DNA from: Octopus vulgaris
Taxonomy: Eukaryota
Direction: 5' to 3'
Length of the DNA: 64,000 nt
Assembly: GCA_951406725.2 (NCBI GenBank)
Contig: OX597819.1
Location: 38,378,001 to 38,442,000 of the forward strand
Positions 2,870-63,755 of the stretch are shown in pieces; the stretch's first letter is position 1; every line of letters starts with the position of its first letter. The translations under genes were made by a program, and so were the position numbers. The notes below the pieces were generated by a model, which was given only the letters and a program-made list of their open reading frames with translations, did not search any database and had not been told where the DNA came from.

Positions 2870-4800
2870 GAATTTCTAAATGTCTCAAAGAGACATGAGC
2901 GGTGGTGGAGCAATAGAGTGGTTGTATAAAGTCAACATAACGTGACAGTCCCATAGAGGGAATTACACCACCGCTATATAGCCCTAGGAAGCATCGACAC
3001 ATCCTTGCTCCTGCACTGGACAATGACTATAAAGCTAAGTTAGAGACAGATATGGTGAGGTGGATCAGCTCAAAAGAATCATCACATTGATCATATCAGA
3101 CTAAGGATGGGTAGGAAATAAAAACAAGCCCTATCAAAGTATAGAGGCAAGCATTGTATAATATAGCAGTTGCATAAGATATGAGGGAGGAGGAAGGTGA
3201 GTTGGGAGAATAACAGTGAACTGCTAACTTGAGGGAAGAGAAGGGGAAATAAATAGGAGTGTGCAATGGACAAGATTTCCTTCAGGGCACAACATATGTA
3301 AGCGTAACATAAAGGAATATAGAGTTTGAGAGATGAGATGAGATGATGGTCATTGGAATGACATAATCAGCAGACAAGTGTTATGGAGGAAGTGGAAGAA
3401 TGGCCAAAGGGTGGAAAGTTGAGTACAAAGACTTAACTTGTTCAATCAGAGCATAACAATTTATGGTAATATGAAAAAGTTTTGTCAAAGCAGTGACAGT
3501 TAGGATGATAGAGAATCTTCATTTAGTGTTTAAGATTTAGCTAATATGTGTATGGTATTGACATTTAAAATTAGTCATTGAGCCAATGTAAATTCTGAAG
3601 GAATTAAAGTGTGCTGTGGTAACTATACACTTATACACAATATCACAGCATAGACAGTAGCTCTCCAAGGGACAATTAATAGATATTCTGGCGTTGCATG
3701 TCTTCCTATCTCACATACACGGGCTGCTCTGTTTGTCTTGTCAAGATCATTATATGTGCCCATATTATCAATCCTATTATTAATAATATCCTTATCGCTA
3801 ATATCATTGTTAGTATTATAATTATTATTAGAATCATTACGTTAACAATAAATATTATTATTATGATTATAATCATTATAATGATTATAACTACTGCTAT
3901 GTGAGCCACTGCTCATATTATTATTATTCTTATCATAACCATTAACACTGTTTATGATACTGTCCTAATTTTGAGTGAGTGCAGGAGTATCTTTATTAGC
4001 TAGGGTTGGTTGACTATGTTTGTTATTGCAAGATTGATATATAATATTACTATAGGAGTTATTAATAGTATTTAAGATTACATTTATTATAATTATTATT
4101 CTTATGGATACCTATATCATTATTGTTGCCATTAATGCTATTATCATTATTGCTCCAATCAGTGTTACCAATACTAGGATCAGTATTGTTTTATTTTTAG
4201 CTCTATCATGGTTGTTATTCCATGATTTTTGGAGATATTTGTCCATATTGTCTCTACAATTGTTATCGTTACTGAGGGTTGTCATTTTTATGCTTTTCTT
4301 ACAAGTGATATTATCTCTGTCATTATTGCTTTTATGGGAACAGTTATGAAAATAATCATTACTATTATTATAATCACAACAGTTGTTATTGGTATTATTA
4401 GGGTTCTTTTCTACAAGCCCTTACTTTCATCATTCAATGTTATGAGTATAGGGCTGAACTTAAGTGTAGTGGAAAAGGAGAGTTTGATAGTGGGCTTGTT
4501 GGGATGGGAAATTTGATTTAAAGATTTAAAAGAGTTTATGTTGGGCTGTAACTCATTAAAGAGAATGATGTGTGAACCACAGGACTTCATGCTTCCTATT
4601 TTTCTTATTATTTCCACTGTATTTTAAGTGGGAAGTGTTTACCAGGGATGACCATATCAAGTACCTTCCATTTGTAGCCCAAGTTACGTAATTAATAGAG
4701 ACATAATTGTTATCAGAAGTAATGAGCCCTTTACTTTGAATTTCACTAGTGGCATAGTTTGATTTAGGTGTGGTAATATTGTTGGGTGAAGGTTATCATT
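2870..4800 (-). mobile_element. decayed Penelope-like retroelement (GIY-YIG endonuclease relic)
   Basis: Minus strand from 3701 reads TCNARISINCPLESYCLCCDIVYKCIVTTAHFNSFRIYIGSMTNFKCQYHTHIS* (Cys linker plus IVY...YIG). Upstream TIKLSFSTT-like linker motif in ORF 4411..4617. Abuts a (TA)n tract; boundaries approximate. Confidence 0.7.
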
Positions 4801-18234: not shown

Positions 18235-18343
18235 GTACATTCTGAAAACAGCAACAACAACAATAACGTGCACTCAACAACTAATATAAATAGAAGTCTG
18301 CATCATCGCCAAAATTCTCCATTTAAACGACATTCCTACCCTG
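18235..18343 (+). CDS. espn: espin/forked-like gene, internal exon (N/H/S-rich linker)
   Basis: ctttag acceptor and strong CTG|gtaagt donor. 109 nt, phase 0 to 1. Reads VHSENSNNNNNVHSTTNINRSLHHRQNSPFKRHSYP; phases match both neighbouring exons. Confidence 0.75.
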
Positions 18344-27474: not shown

Positions 27475-27874
27475 CTCCTATATATGTACCTATGCATACA
27501 GATGTACATGCATATACATGTAACATCCAACTGTTCATTCTAGGAATAGAGGATCTGTACCTATAATTTCTACATTTCGAAATTATTTTTTATATTATTA
27601 TTTAATGGTTTTATATGTAAAATTTAAATCCGTTTCAAATTATATAAATCCCATTTAATACAAATGTTAAAATAAATAGCAAAAAAAATCAATATTCCAA
27701 ATGTAAAAAAAAATTATTTATGTTACGTTATTAATTATCAATGCATAATATTGAAACAGTATTCCTCAAGCTGTTCATCATTATGTAATATTATCATTGC
27801 TATTATTTCCCAATTAACTTGCAGATGAATTATCAAATTTTCAGTATCTAACACGCAGTTGTATTTTATCTCAG

Positions 27875-28928
27875 TTGCAGAACACATAAAACAGTCGTCG
27901 TCAATACCACCCCCTCCACCTCCACCAGCAGCCAGTTCTTATTGGAAGACTTCTTCATCTCGCTCTAACCGTCACTCAACGTGTGTAAGTTTCAACTCCT
28001 CCTCGTCTCCTTCTGCATCACCCCACAATTCTGCTTCTCTGAGCATTGGAGCCAGCTTGCCAGCACATACGATTTCATTACCAGCTTCTGCAGTGAGAAT
28101 TTTGCCCCCACTAACAACAAACATTATTCCACCAACACCTCCTCCTCCACCAACACCACCTGCCCCATTCAGCTTCCCATATTTAGCAGAGAAATCTGCG
28201 ATAATTCCAGGAGCTTCCAATAGTAATCAGCCATCGACTTCGAGTTCATTGAATGCTGCTGAAGATGACAAGCAAGATGCAGAACATTCTTCCACTTCTC
28301 CAGGTCAAAAAATGAATCCTTCACAGGTCCTTCCATCTTCTGACTATCGTAGCCGTCCAATAGAAGGTTCTGAAGACTTCTATTCCTGGTCTAGCAAAGG
28401 AGATTGTAGTGGGCGTTCATCTATTGAGAAAATCCAGATAAATAAAAAGTTTGCTCGAAAAATGGATCCTGTGCAAATTAGTAAAATTAATAATAACTAT
28501 ACAACCTCCATCCAAGTGGGTTCCAAGAAACTCTCAGAAGCCAATGCTGAGAAGCTGCCAAGTCACTTTGATAAAGAAGAGGAGGAGATTGCTCGAATGA
28601 CTTCAGACATGCCCAAATACTTACACTTAAGTAACCCAAGTAGAGAAATGGGCTGTTCTCCTTCGCCGCCACCTCCTCCACCACCACCACCACAGTCTCT
28701 TATTGAAGAGCTGGAGAAAAGCTTTTCATCATCACAGGACACTGACAGCCTCTCTATGCAAAGTGATACTGATGACCTACCGCCGCCACCACCTCCACCA
28801 CCTCCTCCTCCGCCGCCGCCTCCGCTGCCTCCACCTCCTCTCTTTCAACATTCTTTACCATCATCATCCTCTCCCATGTCTGCTGCTTGCGAAGTAAACA
28901 GAACTGCACCGTCATTGTCCAAATCAAG
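27875..28928 (+). CDS. espn: espin/forked-like gene, large proline/serine-rich exon
   Basis: Lies within ORF 27859..28932. Acceptors tcag (27874) and gcag (27880) are both phase 1; donor AG|gtagat at 28929 is phase 2. Several poly-Pro tracts, as in espin proline-rich regions. Confidence 0.85.
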
Positions 28929-29329
28929 GTAGATATATACCTTTTAAATTTCTTTTCTTTTAAAATTTTCTGTTTTGTTTTCAACTAACAATTATCATAA
29001 AATTTCAACAAAAACATCATTATTAAGCATATCTTCATTAAATGCATATACATTCATATATTTTCAACTCCCCATTATTTAGTGATGATATTTACAATGT
29101 GATTATAAAAGTCACAGTATAGTCTTGAAGTAAGTTTTTGGAGAGCTAAATTTATAATTTAGCTTTGAATTCAAGCTCCAGCTGTAACCATTTCACTTAC
29201 ATCTCTAATTCACATCAGGAAGGTAAACATGATTATTTTCCTTTATCTATAAACATGAGACATTTGAGTGTGCCATACATAGTCATACACATGCACACAT
29301 ATATTTAATTTGTTCTAATACATATCATA

Positions 29330-40513: not shown

Positions 40514-42203
40514 TAATAATAATAATAATGTGTGTGTGTGTGTGTGTGTGTATAAGGCGAATTGGCAGAATTGTTAATGCATTGGACAAAATGCTTAGCA
40601 GCATTTCCTCTGTCTTTACATTCTGAGTTCAAATTTCATCAAGGTAATGTTTGCCTTCCATCCTTTCATGGTCAATGAAGTACCAGTTGCATACCATTGA
40701 CAATGTAATCACCCCACCCCCCGTATGCAACTGGTATTTCATTGACCCTGCAAAATTACAGGCTTTGGACCTATAGTAGAAAGGATTATTGTGTGTATAC
40801 ACACATATGTATGTATATATGTATGCATATATTGTATGAAAAGCTTCTAAATAGTATTTCTGACTACTAAATTCACTCGTAAGGCATTGGACAGCTTGGG
40901 GCTACAATAGAAGGGGCTTGCCCAAGTTGTCACACTGTGGGACTGAACCCAACACTATATGGTTGAGAAGTGAAATTCTTAACTTCATAGCCATAGCTGT
41001 ACTTATAGAGTGTGATATTTACATTTCTGGATACAAATACATATACCTTTTGCTAAGATGACATGAGAACTTAGTTATCCTAGGAAGTTCATTGTTGAAA
41101 GACTTGTTCTCAAACTAAAAGTTTGCCTTTTTAAACTTATAATTATTTCATCATAAAAAAAAATTTATAAAAAAAAACGTTTACATGGTTTAATCTATCA
41201 CATGGGAGAAAATATAATTTGCAATAGTTTCATTTGAATTAAACACTTACTCCATTATTTCATTTAAGTCTACAAGAACCAAAAACCTGAATTGTATAAG
41301 AATTTTTATCCAGACAAATAAAATACATGTACATATTATGACATAAGCTTATAACTTTAATGTTATCATTTGCAGTTACTATATCTTAACAAGACTACCC
41401 TTCGTTCTAAAATACAAAACCATGTTTTTAAAGTGTTCTAGATGAAATCCTTCCATTAAAATTTTATGTTAATTTATGTTCTAAATTCCAACTTAATAAT
41501 AATAAAATTATTTTAATAAACTTATTTATTAAATTCTTTATTATTTTCAAAATTAATTGAAAAATAAAAGTAGTATATTTCAACAGAAACATGATAACAA
41601 AAGGGTTAATTTAATTTCCCTCATAAGTCTCATTTGGCTGATATATTACATTTAAAAGTTAGTTGATATTTTAAACTTTTTTTTAATATTGTATTTTGAT
41701 TAGTAAATAGAATAAATTAAATTTTTCTTTTAATTAGAATATATGTATATCATATTAGAATATATATGCTTTGATACTTCTAATTAATATTATGATATAT
41801 ATATATATATCATAATATTAATTAGGAATATGCATCAAAGCATTATCCTGTTAGTTTTCCTTGTTTTCTATAGAGCCTGTGTATATAAGCCACTGGCAAT
41901 TAAACTTTAATGTTTTAAAACTGTGAAATGTGAAATCAATAGATGTAATTAATAAATATATAGATAATTTGCTTGCAATATTTTCTCTCTTGATTTTCAT
42001 TTGATTGTTCATTTACTATAAAAACTCTTTAAAATAATCTAATGTTCTTTTATAGTAGTTATATTTATCGTTCATGTGAAAAATGAAGCTTTTGTTAATG
42101 TGTTGAAGTTTAATTGTGTGTGTGTGTGTGTGTGTTAAATGTTTATCACAAATTAACAAATAGTGAAACAAGATGGCAAAATAATGCCTTGTGATATTTA
42201 TAT

Positions 42204-45983: not shown

Positions 45984-48900
45984 TTAAGTAATCCTGCTAA
46001 CCTACTACAGCTATGTCACCCACTTTTGCTGTAATCAATTTATCAGATCCTCAGTTTCCATTAATATATCTGAACATCCCAAGGGATGTTCAGATATACT
46101 AATAACATACAGAGTCAATGAACTACACTTTCTAATTCTTAAAAATAACATGAGCCTTATCTTTTTCTGTAGTAAATAAAATAAATTGTCCATGAAGTAC
46201 TTCAGTTGATATATATAATCAACTATATACCATCCTTCAAACTTGCACCCAAGTTAAAAATCAATATTTGGTATATCTATGGTTTGACAGAGCGGCAGAA
46301 ATGGTAAAGTGCCATATTAAATTGCAATGTTTAATTATTGACATCTTCTTAATATTCTCAAATTAAATCATGCTACTTCAACAAGAACAGTAAAGGCTAA
46401 TCTTCTGGAGGAAGTCAGAATAAGGCCAAAATATGTCTTGAGTTGTCTTCCATACTTACCAAAGAAATGAAAATAATATTGGTCATTGGCTAATATTGAT
46501 ATTATTTCACCCCTTCATTAGTAAATGTTAATTTGTCACCTATCATTTTTCATACATTTCTTTCTTTTTTTAATACATATTTAAGAACTATGAATTATAG
46601 TTAGATAACTTATACCAGGGTGAAGGGTGACAAGTTCTAATAAGCACTATGTGGGAAAACCATGTGCGAAATTCTTTAAAAAATATATTTCTTACAATTT
46701 AGTGGTATTACTTTGTATAGTAAGAAAATGTGGGGAAAATGGAAAAATTGTCATGTGAGGAAAATGGAAAAATTTGATGGTGATGGATAATTTGCAAACA
46801 ATATTACACATTTTTCTGAAAATATTAGATAGAAATTGGTTTAACAAATGTTATGAGGAAACTCTTAATCAAAAAAAATATGCTTAATCCTGTAATTTTC
46901 AGTATATTTTGTTTTTTTTTTCATGGGTATTTTATCTTTTCATATTATATACCCATAGAAATGTGTTTATAATTTTGATATGTCTTGGTAAATATCTTTA
47001 GTATGTTTCAAAATTATTCAAATATTGTTTCTTTATTCATAAATATACATTAATCTTGTAAGAATGATTGTATTGATGTATTCTATTTAGGTTTTTCTGA
47101 ACTGAAAGTGTAGAAGATGATTATTATTATTATTCTTTAGGCAGTGAGCTGGCAGAATTGTTATCATGCCGAGCAAAACGCTCACCAGTATTTCGCCTGT
47201 CACTGTTCTCAGTTCAAATTCCGCCAAGGTTGACTTTGCCTTTCATCCTTTCGGGGTTAGTAAAATAAGTACCAGTTGAAGACTGGGGTTGATGTAATCA
47301 ACTCATCCTTTCCCCCCAGATTGCTGCCCTTGTGGAAAAATTGAAAGCATTATTATCATTATTATTAGTTTAATGATTATGGTTTTTAAGTGTTTTATCA
47401 ATAATTAGGTTTTAGAAAAGAAAACATTTTTTTAAATATTTAGTTTCTTCTATTTTATATTGTATTAATTGTAATTCTTATTAGTTATTGGACACCAATT
47501 TTGTTAGTGTTATTATTGTTAATATCCATAGAATAGTCTCACTAGTCTCTGCTGGGGACACTTGGGAATCTAGCTGGAAAGACTGTTGCTACTGATAGGA
47601 CCCTATAGAGGAGGTACCTGAGAATTCCACTCCAACAACCCTACTAGGAACAGTGGACAGAAAAGATGGACGGTTGAGAATATAAGAATAGTGGCAGAAT
47701 CAGTTGAATGGCACAAAATATTTTGTGGTATTTAAATTACATATCTCAATGCTCTGAGTTCAAATCCTGCTGTGGTCAACTTTGCTATTCATCCTTTTGG
47801 GGTTGATAAAATGTGTACCAGTTGAGTACTGAGATTGACTTAACTGGCTATATCCACCTTCCACATTTGAATCCCTATGTTAGAAACAAATATTATGTAA
47901 CCCGAAGTTAGTACTAAACTAAAAGCAAAATATGTCATATTTTGCACCATTCAAATTTTCTAATCTGAGTATAATCTGAACATCTATGGTTAAGAACCTT
48001 CAGCCTTCTTCAGAGCCACATACATTTTCTAGTTTATTCAAATTGGACCTTGATATTCCAATAATAGAAAATATCAAATAATTAAGATTAAATTAGGTAA
48101 TTAGGCAAAAAATATTACAGTTAACTAACATTATTCTCTGGTCAAGCAATTCCAGATTCTTAACCATTGTCAGTGGAAGTATAGCTTTTACCATTCCTTG
48201 CTGGCTCTCTTACTGTATATATATATTCATAAAGTTGGAATATGAAATTAGAAAAAGTATATTTGTTTATAATTTATTTATTCTTCAGTTTCATTTAAAT
48301 TTAGTTGTTCTAGGATAAAATTATTGTATTTTTATTGTGTTTATTTTTTTTTTAAAACTCTTGAACTTTTAAATGTGGTTGATTCCTTTGCTGGTACCAG
48401 GAAAGAAATGTTTATTCTCTATTATTTCTGTAATCTTAGGTAATAAATAATATTAAAATTTCTCAAAGAAAATGAAAAAGCAAAGGCTTGTAATTGTGTC
48501 TACTGTTTTATTTATTTATTTATTTATTTTACATCTTTTTTTTTCCTGTCATTTCAATGTCTTTGACATACTAATTTGTGGCCAAAGATGAAGTTTGAGA
48601 TTTATAGTTGGTAAAGTTCAGTTTGAAGACTTCAAATAGATTTTAAAAAATTTTCCACCTGACAGCAAGTGTCTTTTCATCAATTTTCTTCTGTTTGATT
48701 TATATAATCAGAGTTATTCACTTACTCAAAACATTTTTATTTACCCTTTGAACTCTCTCACAGTTATCAAGATGCCTTCTATTCCATAAGAAGAAACAAA
48801 TTCCTGCAAAAGTTGCATTTTAGAGCATTAATATTTATCTTTTTTAAAGTTAACTACTTCATTATAGCTTCCTTTAGAGTTATTTACCTCATGTTCTTTC

Positions 48901-49058
48901 ATTTATTCATGTTTATTTCTATTACAACATTAATACAACAATTTCTTTAGATATTTTCAAGGTTTTTTTTGGAATTGCTTTTCTTTTTTGTCATTGTTTT
49001 TTTTGTGTATGTTTTCATGTGCTTTTGCTTTACTGTTAATTATTTTTATTTTTTAAAG

Positions 49059-49608
49059 TTCCAGAAATTCACTGGGTTTCACTGTCAACGAAGCTAAAAT
49101 GAACAGTCCGAGCAGAGCATCAATTCCAAATGCTTCCACTGGAAGCTCTAGTGCTGATTTAATTGCAGAGATCACTGCAAAAGGAAAGTCTACTTTGAAG
49201 AGAACTCCACGACCAGAACCTACTGTGATGATGTACACTGAAAAAGGCATGGTCCCTGTAACAACTACCTCACCATTGTCAACTGCAGTTTCTCCTACAT
49301 ATTCAGCTGCAACACCAACAACAACAACCACTACCACAACAACAACAACAGATATTAGCACTTCTTCGAACAACAATAACAGTACTGTAACCAGTATTAC
49401 TACTACCACTACTACTACTCGTAGTAGTAGTAATATCAAGTTGAATGACATAAAGACAAATCCTACAACAAATTTCTCACCAAATGTATCAGCAAACACA
49501 AGCCATGTCATTACTGCCAGCACGCCTATTGCCACTATCACCAACAACACCAGTGAGGCACCAACCCCAATGCCAGCAGCTGCTCCACAGCCACTGCCTA
49601 AAGCAAAG
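49059..49608 (+). CDS. espn: espin/forked-like gene, WH2-containing exon (spliced form)
   Basis: Long polypyrimidine tract; acceptors at 49058 or 49064 are both phase 2. SADLIAEITAKGKSTLKRTP (about 49150-49209) matches the espin WH2 pattern (helix then LK-x-T). Followed by a Thr-rich tract; donor AAG|gtagga at 49609 is phase 0. Confidence 0.88.
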
Positions 49609-50997
49609 GTAGGAAATGGACACTATGAAGATACTGTTACTAGTACTTCATTGCGTCGACAGAAGTTACTGGAAAGTCATAAAAATAATTCTCTTATTGA
49701 AATAGAAGAGGAGGTGTCTGTTAATGAGAAAACAATTTCCCCAACACATTCAGGGGACAGTAATCAGGATGACAGGGAGACAGATAAAAAACAAACAGAG
49801 GATACTTCAAAAGAAATAAAGTCAGCAGTAGATTGTAAAACTTTTCATTCAGGAAATAGTTGGGAAAGTAAGCTTCTTCCTTCTGGAAGGAAATTACCAA
49901 TGTTGAATGGAAAAATATCTACATTTTGGCAAATGGGAGGGAAGAGAAGCTTTGAACTTCCTAAAAAGAAGCATAATATTTTGTCTAGAATAAGTCAAGA
50001 AATCATAGAAATACCATCAGATGTTTATGATAAAAGTAATGAAACGAAACAAAAGAAAATTGATGATAGTGATCTAAAAACCTTATTGAAAAAGCCTAGT
50101 GTAGGTTTAAATGGGAAAGTAAAAGAAGCTACATTAGTTTCTCCACAAACCAATAATGGCATAAAAAGGAATGTAAAAGAGTCTAGGTTAGGCAGACCAG
50201 AGACATTTAAAAGTCTAAGAGGAAGACTCAAAGAATCTAGTCTGTCATCAGAAACATCCACAGAATCCAGATATACAAAGTCTTTGGGGATTTCCGAAAA
50301 CAGATTCTCTTTACAATCTAGTTTTTCTTCAGAAACATCTACTGAATCCAAGAATTTTAGATCAATGGATTCGTATGAGAGAAGATTAATAAAACAGTCC
50401 AGTATGTCTTCAGAAGCATCAACAGATTCTAGAAGTATAAGATTTGCTGATGTCTCTGATGATGTAATGGTTAAAGATTATAGTATATCATCAGAAATGT
50501 CTCTAGATTCCAAGCATTACAAATATGACGACAGTGAGACATCTGCGGGTAATGAGACTGATGAGTCTGAATCAGATTATGCTTACAATGGGGGAGTTTA
50601 TGATAGATGTAGTGGCCGAAGGATTGGACCAGTCGTTAATGAGATCAAATACAAAGCAGAATCATTAAAAAAGGAAACCTATAATTTTACAAAGAGCTTA
50701 GTTAACTTCAATCAAGGATTATATGTGGAAGATGTCGATGATGATTATGATGATTGTTATTATTATTCCGATTACGATAACAGAAATTATATTGAGGAAA
50801 GGAATAAAGCAATGAGCAACCACATGCTTGAATTTAATATATGTAAACAGCCAATAGAGCATCCATTGAAAACTAGGCAATTTAGAAGTCTTGTTGATAG
50901 GAGACATATTCAGATTGGCACTAACTTTAGAGATTACGGTCAAACAAGATATAAAAATTTGCCTAGAAAATCACATTATGAAACCTTCATTAATTGA
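49609..50997 (+). CDS. espn: putative alternative terminal extension of the WH2 exon (donor read-through, about 462 aa, K/S/E/D-rich)
   Basis: ORF 49099..50997 continues without stops through the donor in AT-rich DNA, ends in TGA, and has AATAAA at 51104-51109. Confidence 0.7.
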   Translation, partial: VGNGHYEDTVTSTSLRRQKLLESHKNNSLIEIEEEVSVNEKTISPTHSGDSNQDDRETDKKQTEDTSKEIKSAVDCKTFHSGNSWESKLLPSGRKLPMLNGKISTFWQMGGKRSFELPKKKHNILSRISQEIIEIPSDVYDKSNETKQKKIDDSDLKTLLKKPSVGLNGKVKEATLVSPQTNNGIKRNVKESRLGRPETFKSLRGRLKESSLSSETSTESRYTKSLGISENRFSLQSSFSSETSTESKNFRSMDSYERRLIKQSSMSSEASTDSRSIRFADVSDDVMVKDYSISSEMSLDSKHYKYDDSETSAGNETDESESDYAYNGGVYDRCSGRRIGPVVNEIKYKAESLKKETYNFTKSLVNFNQGLYVEDVDDDYDDCYYYSDYDNRNYIEERNKAMSNHMLEFNICKQPIEHPLKTRQFRSLVDRRHIQIGTNFRDYGQTRYKNLPRKSHYETFIN

Positions 50998-51103
50998 ATA
51001 GGCTTCTCATTTAAACTTAGGAAATGATTGTTTATCCTTGTTAAGAACAATTCTTGTAGCTTAATCTAAAGAAAATTTCATTAAAATGTCTAGAAATCTA
51101 TAT

Positions 51104-51109
51104 AATAAA
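51104..51109 (+). promoter_or_regulatory. candidate polyadenylation signal for the alternative terminal exon
   Basis: AATAAA about 107 nt after the stop at 50997, followed by T/GT-rich sequence. The hexamer is common in AT-rich DNA. Confidence 0.4.
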
Positions 51110-54100
51110 TTTATTGTATTTTTGCTGCCCGGTCCAGGAATCAAACCCACAATCATAAGGTTGTGAATTTGATTCCTGGACCAGAAAGTGCATTGTGTCC
51201 TTGAGCAAGGCACTTCATTTCACATTGCTCCAGTGTACTCAGCTGAAAATGAGTACCAACTGTTGCTTCAGCTCTTTCTCCTCCATCACCACCCACCCTC
51301 TAGCTGTCACATCCTGGATGTTTCACTGGGTCAAAGGTGAAAGGGTTCAGAGAGTGTCTGTCTATGCTTGTCCGCAACTACATAGATGTGTAAAAAAAAA
51401 AAAATGAGCAGAAGCACAACATGCGCTACTGTCAAGTTATGCTTTCTTGCATACAGCAATCATGGGATGGGGTTTAATATATATTTTCATTTTTTATTTT
51501 ATTTCATTTTAGAAAGACTTTGATGGGGACTATTTTCTCTCCCGATAACATTATCCAGAATATATTTCAAAAGAGAAGAGAATTCATGATTCGGGAAAAA
51601 TTTAACTTTAATTTCATTATTTACATTTACTCATTCTATCAAGTGTCAGTTTACAAAAGTTTTTTTTTTATATTTAACATGTCAAGACCCTCTTCTATGT
51701 TTTACTCTATTCTGGCTTCTTAAAAGAAATTTCAGATCCTTAACTTTTATCATATATATCATAACATTGATATGTTAATAGATAAAAATCAATGTATTGT
51801 GAAATCACATGTTACAAAAGGATTTGTAATTTATAATTTCACTATATTGATATTTTTTTTGTTATTTCTTTTATTTAGAAAGCTTTAAAAATTAGATAGT
51901 ATCATATTTTCAAAATTTGTTATAATTTATCTTAGAGAAATATAATAATGGATTCTTAAATTTACAATCATAGCAATATTCCATATGGAAGTAAAATTTT
52001 ATACTAATCATATTTACACTTCGAATTCACTGAGATTTAGTGATTAGTGAATATTTTCATAATTAAATACAGTAAACAAATATTTTTTTCTTGAAATCTG
52101 GGCCCAATCTAAAAGAGAAATTTAGAATTAAAGGAAATATATTTTAGTCTTATATAGCTTGAACTTGAAACATTAAAAAGAAACTTTCCAGATGTTATGT
52201 ATATAATTTTGTTAATGCCAATTGTCTGAATGAAATGATACTTACATAAAAAAAAAAAAAATTTATTTGGGGGAAAATGCATAGAAATAATAACAAAATT
52301 GGTGTTTATTTTTGTTGAAATCCATTTCTTTGCTTGCTAATCTGAATATTAAAAAAAACAACTTTTTCCTATATCATGAAACTATTCTATGAGACAGAAG
52401 AAAAAAAAAGTAATATTGTGTGATTTGTGATACTGGTGAATGCATAAATATATTTGCAAGAATATATGTTGCAAAACTCTGAATTCTAAATAGTTTTCTA
52501 TGAAATGGGATCTCTACTTATATGTAAATATTGGATATACCAGAAAGTTTCTTGATCTATGAAGCTATCGGTGTTGGTGCCCATTTCTGCATATAAAGGT
52601 AACACCTTTCTGGTTGTTTTTATCAGAGCACTACAAAGATTGTAATTCACTAAGTAGTCACACAAGCAGTTGTGGTGATGTCACATCTTGATCCCTGATA
52701 AAGGAGCAGTAAAAACTCCATAAAAATCAGGAACTCACAAAACATGCTCTGTAACTTGTAATATGTAATTGCTGTACAATGAAATGTTCTTTTATAATTT
52801 TCTTTTTTTTTTTCTATTAATGATAATCACACACCTTTTTTTGAAATCCTATTTTTAAGTTTAAAATTTTGTGTTCTTGTAGGAAAATTAACTTTATAAA
52901 ACAACAATATATATATATATTTTATTAATATAATGGGTATGCTTTTCAGAGTGCTGGACTACACAAGGTCAATGATTCAAACTTTGTCACAGTCGTTATG
53001 CAGTGCTTTAAAGGAAGACAATATTCTGTTGCCACAGTCTGTTAGGTTTTCATTGGGTCTACTTCCACCTTATAGTTGTTTGATTAGCACTAAGAAAACC
53101 ACAGATCTGTATTGGCCATTACTCCAGAAATATACAAATGTTGAAATTGCCATCTCAAATATGATTGCATGGAAAATGTATATAAAACTGTAAAAAAAAT
53201 GTTTTGTAAAAATGTTTTAAATTACCATTAGTTAGCATATATTCATTAAGATTTTTATAAAATTAAATTTACTGAGAAATGTTTAGTTCATCTTTATTAG
53301 TAATTAATAGCTTTTTGAAACCTGCTTATTTTATAAGATCTTGGTGCATAATGTTCAAGATTAATTAGAAATGTATGCTTCATTAAAGTCTATTATCTGA
53401 TACTAATTATTTTCAAGTTAAAAACTTCAGACTGGATTAGTTAATTGATATTCAGTAAATTTAATTACTTTGTTGTTAAATTTATCTCTCAAAAACAAGT
53501 AATATTTTGAGTATATTATATTAAATTAAATATTTAAATTTGCATCTTGTTTGAGAACTAAGATTGATTAAAGAAACAACAAGAGAAGCTTATATGCAGT
53601 TGCTCAACCTGCTAGAAATGGCTATCAAATCTCCTTAAATTTCCCTCTGAAGAAAACCTTACCTTCTTAAAACAAGAAGGGATAAATTGGATAACATAAG
53701 TCTGGATATATGAAAATTGTGATGGTCACAACTGGTACATCTATGATCATAGGTCTGCTCTGTCAGAATTGACTTATGGTTAAACAACAACTAGGATTGA
53801 GAGAATACATATTTTAAACAATGGTTAGAGACTGGTTACCTAAAATAAAGAATCCTAAAAATGTGTTCTCTTTTTTGGGGAATTCTCTATTGTATAGCTA
53901 TTGAATTCCAACTTTTCATAATTCATAAAATAAAATCAAGAACTTGGATTGGTTTAATCAACAGATACTAGTCTCTCATGAGATTTTCTTAAAGAGACCA
54001 CAGCTGAGAATCCCATGTTTACAGCATTATTTGCGTGTGCTTTAAAAGCAGACAAGGCTGTGATGCTATGCACACACACACACATACCATGCCACCACAT

Positions 54101-56792: not shown

Positions 56793-56960
56793 GAACGGTC
56801 AGAGCGAACAATACTGGAAGGTAACTTTGATCCTAAGAATTTCTTAGATCAAGTTCCTGATAAAGATCCTGCTGGGCGAATCATTCCTCCATGGAAACGG
56901 CATGTATTAGCACGGCAGATGGCAGAGAAGGCAAAATCTGAAGAAGAAGAAAAGAAGAGA
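56793..56960 (+). CDS. espn: espin/forked-like gene, actin-bundling module exon 1
   Basis: ttag acceptor and gtaaaa donor. 168 nt, phase 0-0. Reads ERSERTILEGNFDPKNFLDQVPDKDPAGRIIPPWKRHVLARQMAEKAKSEEEEKKR, resembling the espin forked-homology segment (P-x-x-D-x-x-G-R-x-I-P-x-W-K-R) plus a coiled coil. Confidence 0.92.
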
Positions 56961-61822: not shown

Positions 61823-61867
61823 TTGGAAATGAGCTCTTATGCAGAAGAAATCAGCTGTAAACAAGTA
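61823..61867 (+). pseudogene. 45-bp decayed duplicate of the 3' half of exon 61968-62047
   Basis: Matches 62006-62050 with 2 mismatches, one turning CGA into TGA. Confidence 0.9.
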
Positions 61868-61967: not shown

Positions 61968-62047
61968 CAGGCAGAAGAAGAAGCCCGTTTTAAAAATGTT
62001 CCTGCTTGGAAACGAGCTCTTATGCAGAAGAAATCAGCTGAAAACAA
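61968..62047 (+). CDS. espn: espin/forked-like gene, actin-bundling module exon 2
   Basis: ttttcag|cag acceptor and AA|gtaagc donor (phase 2). Reads [26 protein letters not shown], resembling espin EEEARL..MPAWRR. Confidence 0.9.
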
Positions 62048-62339
62048 GTAAGCATATACCATGGAAATAAAAAATCCCATGTCTGTTTCTTTAAAAGTTA
62101 ATAATTTTCTGTAAAGTAAAACGTGTGTAACAGAGTTCAGGAAATAAAATTCAACATAGACCTGCATTTTTCATCATATTCTATGTATATCATTGAGATC
62201 CTTGCTTTTATTTTCCTAGACAACAATGTTGGTTTCTTCTAGAGGATAAAAGCATTTTTTGTTGATTTAGTATAGTGTAACTAAATCAGATTAATCTAGT
62301 GTTTTATAGCATAATCTTTACCTTTGCTTCTAACCTTAA

Positions 62340-63628: not shown

Positions 63629-63755
63629 AGCTTCTCAAATTCAAAAGGAGACCAAATCACAACTCTTTGCAGCACCCAAAGTAGCCTCTCGTGGTGTAGT
63701 TAATGGAGAAGGCAACATGATACCTCCTTGGCAAAATGATTTGAAAGGAAAATAA
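63629..63755 (+). CDS. espn: espin/forked-like gene, terminal coding exon
   Basis: Long poly-T tract plus cttttcag; phase 2 matches the previous donor. Reads (K)ASQIQKETKSQLFAAPKVASRGVVNGEGNMIPPWQNDLKGK*, stop TAA 63753-63755. Confidence 0.8.

Follow-up and report, generated by a model that had tools for sequence, protein, structure and literature searches.

An open reading frame past a splice donor in an octopus espin-like gene: a probable alternative C-terminus without the bundling module

Introduction

Espin isoforms have been described as always retaining the C-terminal bundling module. The four mammalian isoforms covered in PMC10046292 have this domain in common and vary at the N-terminus, in agreement with what the initial annotation of the DNA studied here had stated for vertebrate espins. 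That DNA is a stretch of 64,000 nucleotides from Octopus vulgaris (hereafter the window; G000:C6:38378001-38442000 on assembly coordinates), and the alternative end that it suggests is C-terminal, unlike the N-terminal alternatives of mammals. The reading frame of an espin-like gene continues far beyond a splice donor in the window, which raises the question of whether this gene has a second end to its protein or whether the open stretch is to be explained in some other way. Our preferred reading, to which we assign a probability of about two in three, is that the 462-codon tail would serve an espin/forked-like gene as its composite last exon, where intronic polyadenylation would compete with splicing and yield an espin lacking the bundling module.

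If true, bundling and non-bundling espins would come from one gene, to be compared with the vertebrate paralogs ESPN and ESPNL, and the new end would be almost four times the length of the module that it replaces. It would also provide a clear case of a long coding extension that is restricted to a lineage and still shows its history of in-frame duplication.

Results and Discussion

The host gene

Assignment of the gene to the espin/forked family is well supported by its architecture, with a WH2-like motif and a C-terminal module that are without a profile match. Three exons on its strand encode ankyrin repeats, in which Pfam Ank was matched. Two of them lie 82 and 68 kb upstream of the window (G000:C6:38295479-38295664 and G000:C6:38310072-38310257), and the last is at 174-308 of the window (features are on the + strand and in window positions unless another contig or strand is given). 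The upstream pair matches residues 166-226 and 233-287 of the solved espin 5ET1, adjacent and in order, with espin ranking 4th and 28th behind higher-scoring, longer ankyrin arrays. Ankyrin repeats 1-4 of espin were not found in the 170 kb upstream. Drosophila forked, a protostome ortholog that also has several isoforms, carries five ankyrin repeats equivalent to espin repeats 5-9 (PMC4758956); the octopus ankyrin exons found begin at espin residue 166.

Further along are a Pro/Ser-rich exon with several poly-Pro runs (27875-28928, in an ORF at 27829-28932; predicted acceptor at 27875 or 27881 and predicted phase 2 donor AAG/GTAGAT) and an exon encoding the WH2-like motif and a Thr-rich linker (49059-49608, with acceptors at 49059 or 49065 that both preserve the frame). 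The motif (49150-49206) has 11 of 17 residues in common with the WH2 motif of rat espin given in PMC2173610 when aligned by eye with two one-residue insertions, and found no match in Pfam or PDB. The spliced form would end with a putative forked-homology/bundling module, whose first exon (56793-56960) is single copy and has "Espin (Fragment)" as its Atlas lead (0.76, rank 6). A second exon at 61968-62047, placed by splice sites and frame, and the last coding exon at 63629-63755 (stop at 63753-63755) would join it in frame to make an end of 124 aa, compared to 116 aa for the rat bundling peptide of PMC2132824. Pfam returned nothing for the shared exon, the WH2-like motif or the module exons. 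Ankyrin repeats, poly-Pro, WH2-like motif and short C-terminal module thus occur in the same order as in vertebrate espins 1-4 (ESPN), all exon joins being read from sequence.

Some minor features of the gene deserve mention. Two candidate exons, predicted at 2957-3054 and 18235-18343, would connect the last ankyrin exon with the poly-Pro exon in a matching phase. In the former, a cluster of basic residues precedes a Tyr-x3-Leu by 14 residues, an arrangement that loosely resembles the ankyrin-binding motif given in PMC4758956 but includes a single Tyr. Paired acceptors 3 or 6 nt apart, each keeping the frame, occur at 49059/49065, 61968/61971 and 27875/27881. At 61823-61867, beside an (AT)n tract and 183 nt upstream of exon 61968-62047, lies a 45-nt copy, 96% identical, of the 3' end of that exon including its donor GT; it resembles part of a duplicated exon that lacks an acceptor. 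If the donor after 61968-62047 is read through, a stop follows at once (62045-62051), so that a short C-terminus could be made there as a second alternative. The intron before the shared exon contains short palindromes at 46060-46103 and, by eye, at 41760-41840.

The frame past the donor

From 49057 to 50997 the plus-strand frame is open through all of its 646 codons (ORF listing). At 49608/49609 it crosses a phase 0 5' splice site, AAG/GTAGGA (49606-49614), which joins 56793 in frame. Left unspliced, it reads on for 1389 nt (49609-50997), 462 codons and a TGA (50995-50997) without a single internal stop, while the two remaining forward frames of the same stretch contain 27 and 74. The frame is kept in both outcomes, spliced or read through, and the locus has the donor of a composite terminal exon, usable and within a continuous frame that enters the intron. 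An opening of this length was supposed in the initial annotation to be very unlikely by chance, and this was confirmed. The probability of no stop over the tail is about 1e-17 from base composition, and none of 2000 order-2 Markov simulations came near its openness, the longest reaching 152 codons. In-frame read-through at the five other donors of the gene gives 12, 6, 0, 2 and 0 codons. Within 264 kb around the locus there are five longer stop-free frames, every one an (AT)n microsatellite.

The TGA lies 5.8 kb ahead of the first exon of the module (56793), and the product predicted from the frame is without the C-terminal bundling module common to the classical espin isoforms. The exchange of this module for a 462-aa tail, as first proposed, is partly supported.

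The tail behaves like coding sequence. Its base bias by codon position (chi2 73.9) was reached by none of 1500 stop-free matched nulls (mean 16.4, maximum 43.2), is still 64.5 without the repeats described below, and is present at both ends, where 0 of 1500 nulls equalled the first 180 codons and 1 of 1500 the last 161. With a codon model trained on 8 other exons, the tail scored -30 in its own frame; its other two frames scored -185 and -313, and the best of 71 intron windows -73. The tail score is still below zero, and in the last third the frame (-31) is barely separated from the next best one (-40). Four diverged tandem units of 81 nt (27 aa) occupy 50188-50511. They are 52% identical, exactly spaced, in register and stop-free, and every unit ends in SSE(T/A/M)S(T/L)(E/D)S. 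Neutral runs matched this intact register in 0.3-0.4% of 3000 cases, and between units pN (0.46) is only slightly under pS (0.53).

A search of the 2.8-Gb genome (227 contigs) found the tail to be single copy at both the protein and the DNA level. No dispersed repeat was present within it, Pfam gave no domain, and neither a transposon domain nor multiple genomic copies were found. The initial annotation was right that the stretch is free of SINEs, but this is a weak clue because 9.5% of 2777 intron windows of its size across the gene lack repeats too, as do 34% of 222 windows nearby. Ser-rich, low-complexity sequence with no domain and no confident fold is what one might expect of a chance frame, or of what is left of a transposon or a gene copy. 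Against the simulations, the codon structure in the espin frame and the lack of a second genomic copy, however, that reading is close to refuted and retains practically no probability. The tail appears to be a real, selected-looking coding extension.

Conservation in one relative

A protein search of the tail among 1.84 billion representatives (E<=0.001) gave one match, P0001, a protein of 634 aa from one 3458-nt contig. P0001 spans the tail in full as well as the shared exon, and its last residue is identical in position to the end of the tail in the window. All 462 positions can be aligned, and the differences amount to 25 substitutions and two indels of one codon each. In the shared part, 6 of 170 residues are changed. 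Stops or frameshifts in an orthologous region had been named at the outset as grounds for abandoning the proposal, and the tail of P0001 has no stop, only whole-codon indels, and the same end. The neutral chance of a stop-free tail at 25 substitutions is 20%, and that of no stop together with two triplet indels about 2%, figures to be read with an ascertainment biased toward intact frames, P0001 having been found as an intact ORF.

The substitutions are unevenly spread, 20 in aa 1-180 and 5 in aa 181-462 (KS p 1.4e-4; 8 of 20000 permutations), and they remain so when adjacent changes are merged into 21 events (p 0.0026). At the rate of the first 180 residues, 31 changes would be expected in the last 282 aa, where 5 are seen. 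The substitutions also lean conservative (p 0.05). This pattern suggests selection on the far end of the tail, although patchy gene-tree ancestry between close species could also produce uneven divergence. The comparison involves one relative and proteins only.

P0001 is probably genomic in origin, because it starts at the first Met of the shared exon and because the 3458 nt of its contig come near the spacing of flanking repeats in the window (3276-3565 nt). As such it bears on conservation rather than on expression. No annotated protein with the tail was found: the tail had no homolog among proteins of 810-2310 aa, and only P0001 among those of 254-809 aa, 254 aa being the smallest size covered at the 90% level. 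A query with the WH2 region, intended to pick up annotated octopus espins as a positive control, likewise returned only P0001, and the blank is uninformative since no annotated octopus espin surfaced either. Metagenome pattern scans confirmed 0 of 516 and 0 of 253 matches.

Where the tail ends, and alternative readings

A later donor that spliced the long exon on to 56793 had been recognized early as a threat to the proposal. The tail has 20 phase 0 GT sites if the first donor is included. Among the inner ones, four (49714, 50101, 50119 and 50173) score 4/7 consensus positions, and the one at 50119 (AAA/GTAAAA) resembles the AGA/GTAAAA donor at 56960. Use of such a site would make the tail part of a longer internal exon, and the protein would keep its bundling module and gain a spacer. 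All four sites, however, fall inside the first 190 codons, and the following 274 codons are open, best conserved, and end as in P0001. No phase 0 donor after 50173 scores above 3/7. A third isoform could arise in this manner, but the whole frame would be left unexplained, and we regard the internal exon as distinctly improbable. Since its end is conserved, its last 282 aa are best conserved and no good phase 0 donor lies past 50173, the tail most likely ends the protein as a terminal exon instead of splicing onward. A candidate polyadenylation signal, AATAAA, follows at 51104-51109, with ATTAAA also at 51080. The initial annotation placed the end of the tail near an AATAAA, which is true, but the clue is weak because one would occur within 130 nt of the stop by chance in 13-25% of cases (its frequency here is one per 444-933 nt). 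About 22 nt past it, at the expected cleavage site, starts a 5'-truncated SINE-like repeat (51131-51257) in which an inverted copy of internal sequence has taken the place of the 5' end. The two arms (51131-51152 and 51161-51182) form a 22-bp hairpin at 51131-51182, in a region that folds at -40.5 kcal/mol (z -7.2), and the downstream element of the AATAAA would fall inside it. The weakness of the near signal and the presence of further ATTAAA sites at 52062-52348 would suit an RNA that encodes the same protein but keeps a far larger part of the intron and has its 3' end at a distant site, not near 51130. A stop codon upstream of exon junctions marks an RNA as a decay target, and the stop at 50997 would have this effect if the downstream introns were spliced. 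We consider the distant end very improbable.

Two other readings accept that the frame is or was coding. An internal promoter could give rise to a separate short protein from Met 49099 (632 aa: WH2-like motif, Thr-rich linker and tail) that lacks the ankyrin and poly-Pro parts, and there would then be no true competition with splicing in the same cells. P0001 begins at the same Met, and PMC3953818 traces the size classes of vertebrate espins to different transcription starts. Given the TAA at 49054-49056, however, any gene caller working on a genomic contig would choose this Met, and we consider a separate short protein unlikely, as we do the lack of splicing competition that it entails. The tail might instead be a last exon that once was coding and is now unexpressed and slowly decaying. 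The 20% neutral survival of the frame and the SINE at the expected cleavage site are compatible with decay, but each indel spans exactly one codon, the tail stops at the same residue, the deficit of changes noted above is seen in the last 282 aa and the conservative lean (p 0.05) points in the same direction. A decaying exon accordingly has a small share of our confidence.

Proposed mechanism and product

The composite last exon remains the preferred reading. The frame, codon structure, conservation, single copy and splice-phase fit described above are observed, and from them we infer transcription, the cleavage site, actin binding and function as follows. When the donor at 49608 is used, the product would be the usual form, which has the 124-aa bundling end. 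Where this donor is skipped and the RNA is cleaved in the intron, probably near 51130, the tail form would result. This product would still carry the ankyrin repeats, poly-Pro and WH2-like motif, with a length of at least 993 aa counted from the poly-Pro exon onward, and would likely lose microvillus-type bundling.

According to PMC2173610, the WH2 of rat espin binds G-actin and its Pro-rich parts bind profilin, and the putative WH2-like motif of the tail form may likewise bind actin monomer. The same paper reports that rat espin without the module is diffuse, with microvilli near control length. In the jerker mutant, as described in PMC3953818, espin with a frameshifted tail moves to the nucleus and bundles are still built through an upstream actin site. 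In view of these precedents, the initial suggestion that the tail form cannot bundle and may act as an antagonist reaches further than the evidence; antagonism is possible without being supported. Because loss of the module makes rat espin diffuse, and a foreign tail relocates jerker espin, the most likely role by analogy is that the tail retargets an actin-monomer scaffold. The tail form would then serve as an actin-monomer/profilin scaffold, with its location and its partners determined by the tail, probably by way of phosphorylation of the Ser-rich repeats.

The tail is predicted to be disordered. It is rich in Ser, Lys, Glu and Asp (14% Ser, highly charged), and AlphaFold2 gave a mean pLDDT of 39.1 from a single sequence, with weak helices at 342-369 and 392-402, and of 34.7 from two sequences, values that fit disorder but also shallow alignments. 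An RVxF-like motif, RSIRF, was picked out in repeat 4 (50431-50445) as a candidate PP1 docking site. It is identical in P0001, but such a motif appears in 36% of 2000 shuffled tails. RVxF motifs are described as docking PP1 in PMC12999354. Two other candidates were discarded. The top Atlas match for the tail, "GLC7-interacting protein 1" (0.79), is within reach of shuffled proteins, and an ankyrin-binding "YY" motif did not match its pattern, the Tyr run being preceded by acidic instead of basic residues.

One may take these elements further and suppose that a single espin gene produces its own ESPNL-like counterpart through a regulated splice-versus-polyadenylation switch, the 462-aa exon having grown from intron by in-frame tandem duplication to provide, in place of the bundling module, a phosphorylation-controlled, PP1-docking (RVxF) scaffold that tunes actin bundles in sensory microvilli. 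We offer this extended version tentatively and think it rather unlikely as a whole. If true, it would be a convergent single-gene answer to what vertebrates reached by gene duplication.

Comparison with known systems

Intronic polyadenylation itself is common and not new. Composite terminal exons were the commonest kind among human events in PMC5928244 (1648 of 2675 resolved isoforms). As in the IgM secreted/membrane type, a donor is left unrecognised, the exon extends into the intron, polyadenylation follows and a C-terminal domain is lost. The products covered in PMC5928244 are mostly truncated proteins, whereas the octopus locus would provide a conserved replacement of 462 aa, with cleavage at a predicted site. 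What is apparently new is one gene making both bundling and non-bundling forms, the latter with an unrelated, lineage-restricted tail. No report of the tail isoform was met among freely accessible papers on octopus, mollusc or alternative-end espins.

ESPNL, the vertebrate non-bundling espin paralog, is similar to the octopus read-through product in architecture only. It is a separate paralogous gene, whereas the octopus tail lies in frame inside the espin gene itself, and an origin from a paralogous gene is not what was found, the tail and the module exon each being single copy. The search that returned only P0001 among 1.84 billion representatives (E<=0.001) likewise gave no homology of the tail to the ESPNL C-terminal domain. 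In Drosophila forked, a C-terminal peptide is common to 5 of 6 isoforms and absent in one (PMC2132824), and nine splice forms are now listed (10.1101/449090). The octopus tail differs in having no sequence likeness to any forked protein among those representatives. Jerker espin keeps upstream espin parts and has its C-terminus replaced by a foreign, relocating tail, but it is no conserved, naturally occurring isoform. As presented in PMC3953818, it results from a disease frameshift by which half of the module is lost and a short tail gained.

Actin genes elsewhere in the genome

Two observations concern the actin family itself. On another contig (G000:C8), L028:1498-2628 on the minus strand is an intronless, full-length, divergent actin ORF of 376 aa; in the other best actin matches, unlike this one, the first 42 profile positions are missing from the main exon. 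At G000:C27:12.58-12.88 Mb, roughly twelve divergent genes of the actin family, some of them containing stops, lie in tandem.
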